From: a virus
Lineage: Duplodnaviria; Heunggongvirae; Uroviricota; Caudoviricetes
Length of the DNA stretch: 14,218 bases
IMG/VR virus record: IMGVR_UViG_2529292920_000009
Direction: 5' to 3' (one strand)
How positions within the stretch are numbered: position 1 is the first letter of the stretch; each line of letters begins with the position of its first letter. Below the pieces are notes generated by a model. It worked only from the letters and a program-made list of their open reading frames with translations, had not been told where the DNA came from and did not search any database. Shown one piece after another: positions 5,023-14,218 of the stretch. The position numbers were made by a program, and so were the translations under genes.

Positions 5023-5647
5023 TTTGGGGATTGATGCGGCAGAGTTTAAAAATGAAATCCCCCGTATCAAAAACCTTCTGAATGGTGCAGCCAGCGATGC
5101 AGAACGGTCTTCTGCCCGTATGCAGCGTTTTATGGAGCGTCAGACTCAGGCCGCCCGGCAGACAACGCAGGCGGCTTCTTCGGCTGCAACAGCCGCATCC
5201 GTCCATGCGCAGACGGTGGAGAAGAACGCACAGGCTCATGAACGCATGGCCCGCGAGGTGGAGAAAACCCGCCAGCGCATGGAGGCGCTGAGCCAGAAAA
5301 TGCGCGAGGAACAGGCGCAGGCCATGGCTCTGGCGGAGGCTCAGGATAAAGCGGCTGCTGCGTTTTATCGTCAGATTGACAGTGTGAAACAGGCCAGTGC
5401 GGGGCTGCAGGAATTACAGCGTATTCAGCAGCAGATCCGACAGGCCAGAAACAGTGGCGGGATTGGTCAGCAGGATTATCTGGCGCTGATTTCTGAGGTT
5501 ACGGCGAAAACCCGTGTTCTTACACAGGCTGAGGAAGAGGGTACCCGACAGAAAGTGGCGTTTATCCGTCAGCTTAAAGAGCAGGCAACCCGCCAGAATC
5601 TTTCATCTTCTGAGTTGCTTCGTGCTAAGGCTGCCCAGCTGGGGTAA
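4994..5647 (+). CDS. H: Tape-measure protein H, N-terminal fragment (ends at in-frame TAA)
   Basis: ATG at 4994 with GGAGG at 4980-4984; overlaps the end of T by 29 nt. I preferred this start over the upstream ATG at 4964 because of the SD and the lambda-like N-terminus. Confidence 0.75.
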   Translation: MDQIANLVIDLGIDAAEFKNEIPRIKNLLNGAASDAERSSARMQRFMERQTQAARQTTQAASSAATAASVHAQTVEKNAQAHERMAREVEKTRQRMEALSQKMREEQAQAMALAEAQDKAAAAFYRQIDSVKQASAGLQELQRIQQQIRQARNSGGIGQQDYLALISEVTAKTRVLTQAEEEGTRQKVAFIRQLKEQATRQNLSSSELLRAKAAQLG

Positions 5648-9090: not shown

Positions 9091-9834
9091 ATGACACAGA
9101 CAGAATCAGAGATTCTGGCGCACGCCCGGCGATGTGCGCCAGCGGAGTCGTGCGGCTTCGTGGTAAGCACGCCGGAGGGGGAAAGATATTTCCCCTGCGT
9201 GAATATCTCCGGTGAGCCGGAGGCGTATTTCCGTATGTCGCCGGAAGACTGGCTGCAGGCAGAAATGCAGGGTGAGGTGGTGGCGCTGGTCCACAGCCAC
9301 CCCGCTGGTCTGCCCTGGCTGAGTGAGGCCGACCGGCGGCTGCAGGTGCAGAGTGATTTGCCGTGGTGGCTGGTCTGCCGGGGGACAATTCATAAGTTCC
9401 GCTGTGTGCCGCATCTCACCGGGCGGCGCTTTGAGCACGGGGTGACGGACTGTTACACGCTGTTCCGGGATGCTTATCATCTGGCGGGGATTGAGATGCC
9501 GGATTTTCATCGCGAGGATGACTGGTGGCGTCACGGCCAGAATCTCTATCTGGATAATCTGGAGGCAACGGGGCTGTATCAGGTGCCGTTGTCAGCGGCG
9601 CAGCCGGGCGATGTGCTGCTGTGCTGTTTTGGTTCATCGGTGCCGAATCATGCCGCCATTTACTGCGGCGACGGCGAGCTGCTGCACCATATTCCTGAAC
9701 AACTGAGTAAACGAGAGAGGTACACCGACAAATGGCAGCGACGCACACACTCCCTCTGGCGTCACCGGGCATGGCACGCATCTGCCTTTACGGGGATTTA
9801 CAACGATTTGGCCGCCGCATCGACCTTCGTGTAA
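9091..9834 (+). CDS. K: Tail tip assembly protein K, lambda gpK-like, with JAMM/MPN and NlpC/P60-type motifs
   Basis: ATG at 9091, 5 nt after the L stop; N-terminus MTQTESEILAHARRCAP. An exact HxHx7Sx2D JAMM motif (HSHPAGLPWLSEAD) is encoded at 9292-9333, followed by a Cys (GVTDCYTLF) and His (PNHAAIYCGDG) pair characteristic of an NlpC/P60-type domain. Confidence 0.9.
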   Translation: MTQTESEILAHARRCAPAESCGFVVSTPEGERYFPCVNISGEPEAYFRMSPEDWLQAEMQGEVVALVHSHPAGLPWLSEADRRLQVQSDLPWWLVCRGTIHKFRCVPHLTGRRFEHGVTDCYTLFRDAYHLAGIEMPDFHREDDWWRHGQNLYLDNLEATGLYQVPLSAAQPGDVLLCCFGSSVPNHAAIYCGDGELLHHIPEQLSKRERYTDKWQRRTHSLWRHRAWHASAFTGIYNDLAAASTFV

Positions 9835-10379
9835 AAACGGGGGCTGAAGCCATCCGGGCGTTGTCCACACAGCTCCCGGCGTTTCGTCAGAAACTGAATG
9901 ACGGCTGGTATCAGGTGCGCATTGCCGGGCGTGATGCAGGTGAAACCGAATTATCTGCCCGTCTTAATGAGCCGCTGGCAAATGGTGCCGTGATCCACAT
10001 CGTGCCGCATCTGGCGGGAGCTAAAAGTGGCGGTGTGTTTCAGGTGGTGCTGGGGGCGGCGCTGATTGCGGTGGCATGGTGGAACCCTGTGGGCTGGCTG
10101 GGTGCCGCGGCTGTATCGGGCATGTATGCGGCAGGGGCCAGTATGATCCTGGGTGGTGTGGCCCAGATGCTGGCACCGAAAGCCCGGACGCCCACAGCGA
10201 CCAGCACGGATAACGGTAAGCAGAACACCTATTTCTCATCACTGGATAACATGGTTGCCCAGGGCAATGTTCTGCCTGTTCTGTACGGTGAAATGCGCGT
10301 GGGGTCTCGTGTGGTTTCTCAGGAGATCAGCACGGCAGATGAAGGGGACGGTGGTCAGGTTGTGGTGATTGGCCGCTGA
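9732..10379 (+). CDS. I: Tail tip assembly protein I, lambda gpI-like
   Basis: MAATHTLPLASPGMARICLYGDLQRFGRRIDLRV... and the C-terminus NVLPVLYGEMRVGSRVVSQEISTADEGDGG resemble lambda gpI from memory; the start overlaps the 3' end of K by 103 nt, as K and I do in lambda. Confidence 0.9.
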   Translation: MAATHTLPLASPGMARICLYGDLQRFGRRIDLRVKTGAEAIRALSTQLPAFRQKLNDGWYQVRIAGRDAGETELSARLNEPLANGAVIHIVPHLAGAKSGGVFQVVLGAALIAVAWWNPVGWLGAAAVSGMYAAGASMILGGVAQMLAPKARTPTATSTDNGKQNTYFSSLDNMVAQGNVLPVLYGEMRVGSRVVSQEISTADEGDGGQVVVIGR

Positions 10380-10439: not shown

Positions 10440-12407
10440 ATGGGCAAAGGAAGCAGTAAGGGGCATACCCCGCGCGAAGCGAAGGACAACCTGAAGTCCA
10501 CGCAACTGCTGAGTGTGATTGATGCCATCAGCGAAGGGCCGATTGAAGGTCCGGTGGATGGATTAAAAAGCGTGCTGCTGAACAGTACGCCGGTGCTGGA
10601 CAGTGAAGGTAATACCAACATCTCCGGTGTCACGGTGGTGTTCCGGGCCGGTGAGCAGGAGCAGACACCGCCGGAGGGATTTGAATCCTCCGGCTCTGAG
10701 ACGGTGCTGGGTACGGAAGTGAAATACGACACGCCGATCACCCGCACCATCACGTCGGCAAACATCGATCGTCTGCGCTTTACTTTCGGTGTGCAGGCAC
10801 TGGTGGAAACCACCTCTAAGGGGGACCGGAATCCGTCGGAAGTCCGCCTGCTGGTTCAGATACAGCGTAACGGTGGCTGGGTGACGGAAAAAGACATCAC
10901 CATTAAAGGCAAAACCACCTCACAGTATCTGGCATCGGTGGTGGTGGGTAACCTGCCGCCGCGCCCGTTCAATATCCGGATGCGCAGGATGACGCCGGAC
11001 AGCACCACAGACCAGCTGCAGAACAAAACGCTCTGGTCGTCATACACCGAAATCATCGATGTGAAACAGTGCTACCCGAACACGGCACTGGTCGGCGTAC
11101 AGGTGGATTCGGAGCAGTTCGGCAGCCAGCAGGTGAGCCGTAATTATCATCTGCGCGGGCGTATTCTGCAGGTGCCGTCGAACTATAACCCGCAGACGCG
11201 GCAATACAGCGGTATCTGGGACGGAACGTTTAAGCCAGCATACAGCAATAACATGGCCTGGTGTCTGTGGGATATGCTGACCCATCCACGCTACGGCATG
11301 GGGAAACGTCTTGGTGCGGCGGATGTGGACAAATGGGCGCTGTATGTCATCGGCCAGTACTGCGACCAGTCAGTGCCGGACGGCTTTGGCGGCACGGAGC
11401 CGCGCATCACCTGTAATGCGTACCTGACCACACAGCGCAAGGCGTGGGATGTGCTCAGTGATTTCTGCTCGGCGATGCGCTGTATGCCGGTATGGAACGG
11501 GCAGACGCTGACGTTCGTGCAGGACCGACCGTCGGATAAGGTGTGGACCTATAACCGCAGTAATGTGGTGATGCCGGATGATGGCGCGCCGTTCCGCTAC
11601 AGCTTCAGCGCCCTGAAAGACCGCCATAATGCCGTTGAGGTGAACTGGATTGACCCGAACAACGGCTGGGAGACGGCGACAGAGCTTGTGGAGGATACGC
11701 AGGCCATTGCCCGTTACGGTCGTAACGTCACGAAGATGGATGCTTTTGGCTGTACCAGCCGGGGGCAGGCACACCGCGCCGGGCTGTGGCTGATTAAAAC
11801 AGAACTGCTGGAAACGCAGACCGTGGACTTCAGCGTGGGCGCAGAAGGGCTTCGCCATGTGCCGGGCGATGTCATTGAAATCTGTGATGATGACTATGCC
11901 GGTATCAGCATCGGCGGGCGCGTGCTGGCGGTAAACAGCCAGACCCGGACGCTGACGCTCGACCGTGAAATCACGCTGCCATCCTCCGGTACCACGCTGA
12001 TAAGCCAGGTTGACGGAAGTGGCAATCCGGTCAGCGTGGAGGTTCAGTCCGTCACCGACGGCGTGAAGGTAAAAGTGAGCCGTGTTCCTGACGGTGTTGC
12101 CGGATACAGCGTATGGGGGCTGAAGCTGCCGACGCTGCGCCAGCGACTGTTCCGCTGCGTGAGTATCCGTGAGAACGACGACGGCACGTATGCCATCACC
12201 GCCGTGCAGCATGTGCCGGAAAAAGAGGCCATCGTGGATAACGGGGCGCACTTTGACGGCGAACAGAGTGGCACGGTGAACGGTGTCACGCCGCCAGCAG
12301 TGCAGCACCTGACCGCAGAAGTCACCGCAGACAGCGGGGAATACCAGGTGCTGGCGCGCTGGGACACGCCGAAGGTGGTGAAGGGGGGAGCTTTATGCTT
12401 CGCCTGA
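10440..12407 (+). CDS. J: Host-specificity protein J, N-terminal fragment
   Basis: ATG at 10440 with GGAG at 10428-10431; [54 protein letters not shown]... matches lambda J; the frame ends 7 codons after the G6 tract. Confidence 0.85.
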
Positions 12408-13810
12408 CCGTGGCAGCGGATGACGGCAGTGAGCGGCTGGTCAGCACGGCCCGGACGACGGAAACCACATACCGCTTCAGGCAGCTGGCGTTGGGGCGTT
12501 ACACGCTGACAGTCCGGGCGGTAAATGCCCGGGGACAGCAGGGCGATCCGGCGTCGGTATCGTTCCGGATTGCCGCACCGGCAGCGCCGTCACAGATTGA
12601 GCTGACGCCGGGCTATTTTCAGATCACCGCCACGCCGCATCTTGCGGTTTATGATCCGACGGTACAGTTTGAGTTCTGGTTTTCGGAAAAGCGGATTACC
12701 GATATCAGGCAGGTTGAAACCAGCGCGCGCTATCTTGGCACGGGGATGTACTGGATAGCCGCCAGTATCAATATCAAACCGGGCCATGATTATTACTTTT
12801 ATATCCGCAGTGTGAACACCGTTGGCAAATCGGCATTCGTGGAGGCTGTCGGTCAGGCGAGCGATGATGCGGAAGGTTACCTGGATTTTTTCAAAGGCCA
12901 GATAACCGAATCCCATCTCGGCAAGGAGCTGCTGGAAAAAGTCGAGCTGACGGAGGATAACGCCAGCAAACTGGAGGAGTTTTCGAAAGAGTGGCAGGAC
13001 GCTAACGATAAGTGGAATGCCATGTGGGGCGTCAAAATTGAGCAGACCAAAGACGGCAAACATTATGTCGCGGGTATTGGCCTCAGCATGGAGGACACGG
13101 AAGAAGGCAAGCTGAGCCAGTTTCTGGTTGCCGCTAACCGTATCGCGTTTATTGACCCGGCAAACGGGAATGAAACGCCGATGTTTGTGGCGCAGGGCAA
13201 TCAGATATTTATGAACGACGTGTTCCTGAAGCGCCTGACGGCCCCGACCATTACCAGTGGTGGAAATCCACCGGCATTTTCCCTGACATCAGACGGAAAG
13301 CTGACCGCTAAAAATGCGGATATCAGTGGTAGAGTGAATGCGAACGCCGGGACGCTCAACAATGTCACGGTAAATGAAAACTGTACGATTAAGGGCATGC
13401 TGGAGGCGACTCAGGTCAGAGGTGACTTCGTTAAAGCTGTATCCAAATCATTTCCGAAACAGGCTGGTACGTGGGGTAACACGGAAACACCAAACGGGAC
13501 GGTTACAGTCACCATCAGCGATGATCATAACTTTGACCGTCAAATCATTATTCCGCCCATTATCTTTAACGGAATAGCGTATAGCTATCCGGGAAGTGGT
13601 AATAACCCGGGAGGTACAAGTTACACGGGTTATGGTTTCGAAGTTCGCAAAAACGGTGTATTAATCGCATCCAGAGAAACTAAAGGGGCCATTCCCGGTA
13701 GTTACAGTGCGGTTATTGATATGCCGAGTGGCAGGGGAGCGTCACTCTGGAGTTTAAGGTTTTCCATAAAGGCAATCAGTGGGCAGGTAATATCACCGAC
13801 TGTACGGTGA
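12395..13810 (+). CDS. J: Host-specificity protein J, C-terminal fragment (-1 frame relative to the N-terminal fragment)
   Basis: Continues the J sequence ([28 protein letters not shown]..., fibronectin-III-like region); the last ~150 aa look diverged from lambda and are more AT-rich; the frame ends at TGA 13808-13810 after the G4 tract. Confidence 0.8.
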
Positions 13811-13872
13811 TTGTGACCAAAAAAGCCGCTTCCGGCATCAGTATTCGTTGAAATTGTTATAACCCATATAAG

Positions 13873-13899
13873 GGCACCAAAAATGGTGCCTATTTTATT
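13873..13899 (+). terminator. Rho-independent terminator downstream of J
   Basis: Seen directly: 7-bp stem GGCACCA (13873-13879), loop AAAA, TGGTGCC (13884-13890), then TATTTTATT (13891-13899). Confidence 0.6.
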
Positions 13900-14013
13900 G
13901 CAGAAAAGCGAGAGGTAATTATGCGTAAAGGTAACCGGCTCATTTAAACCGTCTGGTCTGTTTCCTCCGGCTCTACAAAAATAATGTCCATCATTTTTAA
14001 TGGACACTATCGT

Positions 14014-14218
14014 ATGAAACACCGGACCTGGATCACTGAAGCTTTACGTCTTCACTTTGAAGAACATTTACCCCGGGTTGTGGCCGGGCGTCGCCTGGGT
14101 GTACCAAAATCAACAGTTTGTAGTATGTTCGTGCGCTTTCGGAGAGCTGGCCTTTCGTGGCCTTTGCCCGCAGGCATGTCGGAGCAGGAACTTGATGCCT
14201 GCCTTTACGGACAATTTT
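14014..14218 (+). CDS. HTH-domain ORF, 3' end beyond the window; possibly the N-terminus of an IS transposase (family not determined)
   Basis: ATG at 14014 opens a frame that runs to the window edge (68 codons). It encodes a helix-turn-helix-like segment (GRRLGVPKSTVCSMFVRFRRAGL) of the kind seen at transposase N-termini. There is no clear SD, and a 7-bp inverted repeat lies immediately upstream (13985-14006). Confidence 0.4.
   Translation, partial: MKHRTWITEALRLHFEEHLPRVVAGRRLGVPKSTVCSMFVRFRRAGLSWPLPAGMSEQELDACLYGQF

Follow-up and report, generated by a model that had tools for sequence, protein, structure and literature searches.

The DNA analyzed here (the window) is an entire draft contig of 14,218 bp, AIEZ01000007.1 (assembly GCA_000249135.2; locus L016). 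It comes from a lambda-like prophage, and its 3′ portion holds the last tail genes, the beginning of lom, and the left end of an insertion sequence (IS). The features discussed below are as follows; coordinates are those of the window and + is the strand presented.

9732-10379: gene for tail-assembly protein I
10440-13851, +: J, the tail-tip gene, from the ORF list and from alignment to the intact gpJ of Escherichia coli strain 104
13872-13901, +: terminator-like hairpin and T-rich tail between J and lom, from a terminator scan, conserved in relatives with an empty site
13910-13930, +: 5′ stub of lom, made up of the Shine-Dalgarno (SD) sequence GAGAGG (13910-13915) and the first 10 bases of the gene, ATGCGTAAAG (13921-13930), the same as annotated Ail/Lom starts
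13921-13947, +: chimeric 8-codon ORF, MRK/GNRLI and a stop, with the junction 13930/13931 inside it
13923-13930, no strand: predicted left copy of the target duplication, GCGTAAAG, from the 8-bp duplications in complete copies; the right copy lies outside the window
13931-14218, +: ISCro1-type IS66 element, left 288 bp of 2,699 bp, cut by the contig end, from identity to complete copies
13931-13952, +: left terminal inverted repeat (IRL), GTAACCGGCTCATTTAAACCGT, with 16 of 22 positions shared with the reverse-complemented right end
13981-14010, +: leader dyad or hairpin with arms TAATGTCCAT (13982-13991) and ATGGACACTA (14000-14009) and an 8-nt loop, from comparison of left ends
14014-14217, +: first 68 codons of tnpA (IS66 accessory protein, N-terminal HTH domain), from NF038385 and a family profile

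Gene J and its terminator in a decaying prophage

The intact frame of J ends with the TGA at 13849-13851. Compared with the intact gpJ of strain 104, the gene is broken by two 1-nt deletions, one near 12388 and one near 13738. The first (GGGGGTGAG to GGGGGGAG) is common to three other assemblies (L010, L014, and L015), and we therefore take it to be real; the second (AA to A) is found in this contig alone. The host is a decaying or defective lambda-like prophage. Three homopolymer-length differences in the tape-measure gene, at 5641, 5674, and 6576, resemble sequencing errors.

Sister prophages carry genes for the type III effectors NleG, NleB/SseK, NleH, and Cif downstream of their tail-fiber genes (L001, 11030-12365; L010 and L011, 19564 onward; L012, 16967-20626), and in one of them a reverse-transcriptase-TIR gene adjoins cif. 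From these effector genes we assign the source prophage to an effector-carrying lambdoid lineage of attaching-effacing E. coli.

A terminator had been predicted immediately downstream of J, and the sequence comparisons bear this out. When we scanned 13600-14218, the sole terminator-like site on the + strand was a stem-loop, GGGCACCAAAAATGGTGCCT, at 13872-13891, followed by the tail ATTTTATTGC. Its perfect 7-bp arms lie at 13873-13879 and 13884-13890. The hairpin is kept in uninterrupted relatives, and in L001 its stem shows one compensatory A-T to G-C change (GGCACC/GGTGCC to GGCGCC/GGCGCC). The T run in the window is broken by an A (CTATTTTATT, versus CTTTTTTATT in relatives). Judged by its sequence, the site has the GC-rich stem-loop, the T run, and the conservation of a predicted intrinsic terminator.

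An ISCro1-type element within lom

In lambda, the gene downstream of J is lom, which encodes an Ail/Lom outer membrane protein. The original prediction was that different cargo had taken the place of lom here, possibly an IS or a regulator. To locate the boundary we compared the window with phages and prophages that are uninterrupted at this site. These align to the window until 13929/13930 and have an annotated Ail/Lom gene beyond; homology ends at this point in 74 phage records and more than 1,200 E. coli records. The uninterrupted relatives read GAGAGG-N5-ATGCGTAAAGTT..., running into full-length Lom. The closest empty site, in E. coli strain 104, is GAGAGGTAATTATGCGTAAAGTTTGTGCAGCA..., which encodes MRKVCAAILS.... 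Across the insertion site, strain 104 reads ATGCGTAAAGTTTGTGCAGCA..., and the window reads GAGAGGTAATTATGCGTAAAG followed directly by GTAACCGGCTCATTTAA. The stretch GAGAGGTAATTATGCGTAAAG is identical to strain 104 lom, and the ribosome binding site (RBS) and initial codons match annotated lom genes at the same place after J.

What follows the junction belongs to a mobile element. For a 366-base region at the end of the window, thousands of matching sites exist on E. coli chromosomes and plasmids; there the annotation reads "IS66-like element accessory protein TnpA." The 288 bp from 13931 onward show no mismatch to a 2,699-bp copy (L020) and are 100% identical to many (hundreds of) plasmid copies. 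We placed the ends of the IS by script in six complete copies. All six were 2,699 bp long, began with GTAACCGGCTCATTTAAACCGT, finished with ...ACGGTTCTGACGAGTCGCTTAC, and were flanked by perfect 8-bp duplications. The right end in complete copies is GTAAGCGACTCGTCAGAACCGT, the reverse complement of which matches the IRL at 16 of 22 positions. In the window, the IS terminus GTAACCGG... starts at 13931 and its partner repeat is about 2.7 kb away, outside the window. The IRL has the 5′-GTAA(G/C)CG start of the IS66 family, and the right repeat is seen in complete identical copies.

The complete copies encode tnpA, tnpB, and a transposase labeled "ISCro1 family" by NCBI, and their proteins match IS66_access_TnpA, IS66_TnpB/TnpB_IS66, and transpos_IS66/DDE_Tnp_IS66. 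Identical complete copies gave matches to TnpB_IS66 and DDE_Tnp_IS66 at E = 2.5e-103; the window itself holds only 68 codons of tnpA. Published ISCro1 is 2,699 bp long and makes 8-bp duplications (PMC12115866); the name was first used for an element of Citrobacter rodentium ICC168, a strain with 24 copies (PMC3072379). Our use of the name ISCro1 follows the NCBI label and the published length, not the ISfinder reference.

These alignments establish the identity of the IS and its exact left boundary at 13931, while the intact element and the target duplication at this site are extrapolated from other copies. We conclude with high confidence that a 2,699-bp ISCro1-type IS66-family element transposed into lom of a defective lambda-like prophage, after the tenth base of the gene, in the fourth codon. 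The proposal of an insertion sequence was thus correct: the 288 bp are identical to ISCro1-type copies that have terminal repeats and duplications. The idea of different cargo in place of lom was wrong, since lom itself is interrupted by the IS, behind the tenth base of the gene. Every feature listed in the original prediction exists at its coordinates, but together they make up one IS insertion and are not separate features. For annotation the matter is settled: an ISCro1 insertion forms the boundary after J and separates lom from its start signals. It is the routine disruption of a known accessory gene by a known element.

The element points in the same direction as J and would have inserted by DDE-type transposition, duplicating 8 bp of the target. 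The predicted right junction reads ...GAGTCGCTTAC and then GCGTAAAGTTTGTGCAGCA, the remaining part of lom. Cut off from its RBS and start codon, lom is most likely inactive. The right end of the IS, the second copy of the duplication, and the remainder of lom fall outside the window because the contig stops inside the repeat. Assembly breaks are usual inside multicopy repeats, and the 3′ end of the window is such a break, within a multicopy IS.

We considered whether the phage-IS junction could instead be a draft assembly artifact at a chimeric contig end. In favor of this, the draft contig that makes up the window ends in a repeat and has homopolymer-type indels elsewhere. Against this, the junction falls exactly at the IS terminus, with 288 bp of the IS beyond it, and two complete genomes have the insertion at the same base and in the same orientation. 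One of these is E. coli AUSMDU00014361 (L001), where GCGTAAAC is present on both sides of the element and lom resumes after it. In addition, the base that precedes the IS in the window, a G, agrees with the lom allele of the closest empty site. We consider an artifact very improbable, and we retain transposition into lom as the explanation of the junction.

Other, independent insertions of the same element occur in the J-lom neighborhood. In L002 (5017-7715), ISCro1 lies 5 bp upstream of the window site and is reversed in orientation, with the duplication GCATAATT; this type of arrangement was found in at least four genomes. In L010 (13930-16628, corresponding to window position 13357), an independent ISCro1 sits inside J of a sister prophage, with the duplication GGACGCTC. 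BLAST matches that reached 5 to 15 nt past the end of the IS had raised the possibility of a TAAA-type target preference. The BLAST listing ranks matches by similarity to the query flank and is therefore biased for this purpose, and we dropped the idea given the unrelated flanks in metagenome copies and in L010.

The junction also accounts for the 8-codon ORF, MRKGNRLI, that begins with the ATG at 13921 and ends with the TAA at 13945-13947. [quoted passage not shown] The ORF, its SD sequence, its ATG, and its TAA are all at the coordinates predicted for them, but it is a product of the junction and not a gene. Ribosomes that start at the lom ATG would make an 8-residue peptide, stopping at the TAA in the IS repeat, for which no function is expected.

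We then asked how widely this junction and ORF occur. Among 5,426 complete E. coli genomes, two have a similar junction and ORF, and both carry the insertion at the same base. An identical junction occurs in none of the complete E. coli genomes; the best matches are two genomes at 95.5% identity over 156 nt, and an exact-match search with 41 nt of the junction against one-genome-per-species contigs found no match. The 8-codon ORF is missing at other sites of the same IS, and the empty sites hold full-length lom.

It had been suggested that the ORF could be a leader peptide, or chance. A role as a leader or regulatory peptide acting on the HTH gene downstream would be in keeping with its good SD sequence (GAGAGG), which precedes the ATG by 5 nt, and with its clean stop. 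However, the SD sequence, the ATG, and three codons are the start of lom itself, the left flanks of other copies of this IS are unrelated and lack such an ORF, the junction is confined to 2 of the 5,426 complete E. coli genomes, and the stop of the ORF is 66 nt upstream of tnpA. We therefore regard a leader peptide as highly improbable: the start signals are those of lom, the end is the IS repeat, and the ORF is missing in close relatives, occurring only in the two complete genomes with the same insertion. Nor is it pure chance, being the start of a host gene fused to the end of an IS. This "mini-gene" after J should stay unannotated. More generally, false small-ORF calls repeatedly arise from junctions of this kind, in which the start of a host gene is fused to an IS end.

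The 5′ part of tnpA

An ORF that begins with the ATG at 14014 stays open for 68 codons to the end of the window, because the draft contig stops inside a multicopy repeat, the IS. Its translation matches the NCBIfam model NF038385 (IS66_access_TnpA) with E = 1.3e-26 and 93.4 bits, a score that lies below the full-length cutoff owing to truncation. Together with the identity to annotated copies, this match identifies the ORF as the 5′ part of tnpA.

The original prediction described the encoded segment as HTH, and this reading holds at the level of the family. The window fragment alone gives weak HTH matches (HTH_23, E = 0.033). When we built a profile from 15 N-terminal domains, it matched the HTH of a SorC-type regulator (2w48, E = 4.9e-5), and HTH_23 was matched by all 15 domains, with a best E value of 2.8e-6. 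The canonical HTH_Tnp_1 of TnpA lies farther downstream, beyond the window.

Could the HTH ORF instead be a phage gene, such as a regulator or moron carried in place of lom, with no transposable element involved? It is located where lambda has accessory genes and contains an HTH-like segment. But its sequence is exactly that of the tnpA 5′ end in an element present in many unrelated chromosome and plasmid contexts, and complete copies of that element bear terminal repeats and target duplications. We give this idea almost no credence and treat the ORF as tnpA.

NCBI TnpA WP_001339397.1 (225 amino acids) starts at an ATG at 13984, ten codons upstream and inside the dyad described below. We rejected this start. 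In relatives, the frame is closed by a TAA or TAG in the loop or 3′ arm of the dyad, or is shifted by loop-length differences of 1 to 4 nt, and position 1 of the NF038385 profile aligns to residue 3 of the ORF that begins at 14014. Because the upstream frame is closed or shifted in relatives, we take the ATG at 14014 as the tnpA start; the comparison indicates a protein of 215 amino acids.

Two relatives have a TnpA of mixed composition. In L059 (316-963; Thauera) and L082 (86 onward; Escherichia sp.), the N-terminal HTH domain is about 31% identical to that of ISCro1 and the C-terminal half is nearly identical. The mosaic pattern suggests recombination between IS66 subgroups. The dyad of both keeps AATGTCC...GGACATT, with a longer loop. 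Within the tnpA coding sequence of the window there is also a perfect 8-nt inverted repeat (14170-14177 and 14195-14202).

A conserved dyad upstream of tnpA

The one point of wider interest at this locus is the leader dyad, a conserved hairpin-forming motif directly before tnpA. A 7-bp inverted repeat had been predicted here and is present: TGTCCAT (13985-13991) and ATGGACA (14000-14006) are exact complements, and they widen to 11-nt arms (13981-13991 and 14000-14010) that are 91% complementary. It is not a terminal inverted repeat, the terminus of the IS being GTAACCGG... at 13931. The 10-bp dyad ends 4 nt before the tnpA ATG and its 7-bp core 7 nt before. It is present once in the whole element, at IS coordinates 55 to 76. 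Taken by itself, an inverted repeat like this would attract no notice; what sets it apart is its conservation.

To determine if the dyad is conserved, we collected relatives by TnpA protein similarity, not by the motif, from one-genome-per-species contigs and metagenomes. We compared 31 left ends upstream of tnpA, 29 of them distinct, with TnpA identity down to about 40%. The block TAATGTCCAT-loop-ATGGACA(C/T)TA was the best conserved noncoding block in the 31 left ends. In the 10-pair helix, 94.1% of cells were paired, compared with 23 to 44% when the 3′ partner columns were slid. Two of the helix pairs change on both sides (AU in 11 sequences versus GC in 10, and AU in 25 versus CG in 4), and none of 500 shuffles reached the observed pairing or covariation. 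RNAalifold independently predicted the same helix. Loop length ranges from 6 to 12 nt, chiefly owing to differences in a T run, and the core 3′ arm ATGGACA ends 6 to 8 nt before an ATG or GTG start in all four subgroups. The predicted fold of the window leader has an energy of −8.6 kcal/mol (z = −2.85 over 48 nt); ten leaders of IS66 elements with a short TnpA (ISEc22, ISEc8, and ISEc23 type) have fold z-scores of −0.9 to −5.1. A search of Rfam gave no match to the leader at E ≤ 1.

Some relatives have the end of another element in the loop. An IS3-family end (...TGGGGCGCAGTTCA) lies exactly in the dyad loop of the metagenome relative L181 (300-350), in which the last part of an IS3-type transposase ORF can be seen, and an IS3-family end (...GGGGCGCACTACAC) lies exactly in the loop of another metagenome relative, L180 (about 100-137). 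The loop of L171 holds a 15-nt piece of the same IS3-family end. In the window, a second, 11-nt pairing (82%) between 13959-13969 and 14011-14021 would surround the dyad and take in the tnpA start codon; by eye, this pairing seems absent in distant relatives.

What might the dyad do? IS66 is a large family, and to our knowledge its regulation is essentially unstudied. The fold-back structures of IS10 and IS50 block translation of read-through transcripts. The window has no SD sequence before tnpA except the GGA in the 3′ arm of the dyad, and the start codon is outside the stem. A hairpin in the mRNA leader would hold just these SD-like bases in its stem and so keep tnpA translation low; lower ribosome access is to be expected because the stem holds the GGA, as in the leader of IS200, where a stem-loop in the 5′ untranslated region sequesters the SD sequence (PMC4513863).

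Such a hairpin may act especially on read-through RNA, such as that from phage late transcription out of J. A consensus promoter scan of 13600-14218 returned no passing candidate. A looser scan gave candidates that match 7 or 8 of 12 positions, recurrent in position but too weak to claim as promoters. Weak −10-like hexamers (AATAAT, AATAGT, GAAAAT, and AACAAT) recur 3 to 9 nt upstream of GTCCAT, with −35-like hexamers 16 to 18 bp upstream of them, in several lineages in a CCGTCTG... block just interior to the terminal repeat. If transcription started near these −10-like hexamers, native mRNA would begin too far downstream to include the 5′ arm, and folding would be limited to read-through RNA. 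Folding of this kind would shield the element from phage late transcription leaving J.

The same symmetry could reflect a DNA operator for a dimeric HTH protein. TnpA is the obvious candidate and would then autorepress the tnpA promoter. InsA of IS1 and InsA of IS2 autorepress at their left ends. TGTCC...GGACA is nearly invariant across TnpA proteins that are only 40 to 60% identical, while the flanking noncoding DNA diverges, and TnpA has two HTH-like regions, one with similarity to HTH_Tnp_1/"IS2 repressor TnpA" and the other at the N terminus. Symmetric covariation is equally expected for a dimer site, and wobble pairs are not in excess over mismatches: among one-sided changes in the helix, G·U and A·C counts are about equal, so these changes do not distinguish RNA from DNA. 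An operator is harder to reconcile with the spacer between the arms, which varies from 6 to 12 nt with the T run even in close relatives and which a rigid dimer site would tolerate poorly. The hairpins of ISEc8, ISEc22, and ISEc23 keep the fold with arms of different sequence and length, and the dyad keeps its position with respect to the start codon rather than the IS end.

Taking these observations together, we favor the reading of the dyad as a hairpin-type control limiting tnpA expression, and put its chances at about even. The broader proposal, that it is a family-wide cis-regulatory leader hairpin of IS66 elements that holds TnpA translation low and silences read-in transcripts, is plausible, and we advance it tentatively. 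We think an operator rather unlikely, and the remaining weight falls to roles other than hairpin control or an operator. In the full-text literature that we searched, which did not include Han et al. 2001 (IS679/IS66), we found no account of an IS66 leader hairpin before tnpA.

The locus can be set beside several known systems. Its left 288 bp are identical to copies labeled "ISCro1 family," which have the tnpA-tnpB-tnpC order and GTAA... termini; the window shows the left end only. Like lambda lom, the interrupted gene lies immediately after J, and the intergenic terminator-like hairpin, the SD sequence, and the first 10 bases match lambdoid lom; unlike in lambda, only those 10 bases stay joined to the RBS, the remainder lying beyond the IS, outside the window. 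ISEc8, ISEc22, and ISEc23 have the same gene order, and ahead of their tnpA is a hairpin whose motifs are related to those here (...GTGGACGCTATCC-ATG in ISEc22, compared with ...ATGGACACTATCGT-ATG in the window). However, their TnpA lacks the N-terminal HTH domain of about 100 residues, and their hairpin arms differ in sequence and length. Finally, like the stem-loop of IS200 tnpA, the dyad is a conserved left-end inverted repeat just upstream of the first gene of the IS, predicted to form over the RBS region, whereas its stem has only a GGA in place of a strong SD sequence and leaves the start codon outside, and the dyad may instead be an operator.
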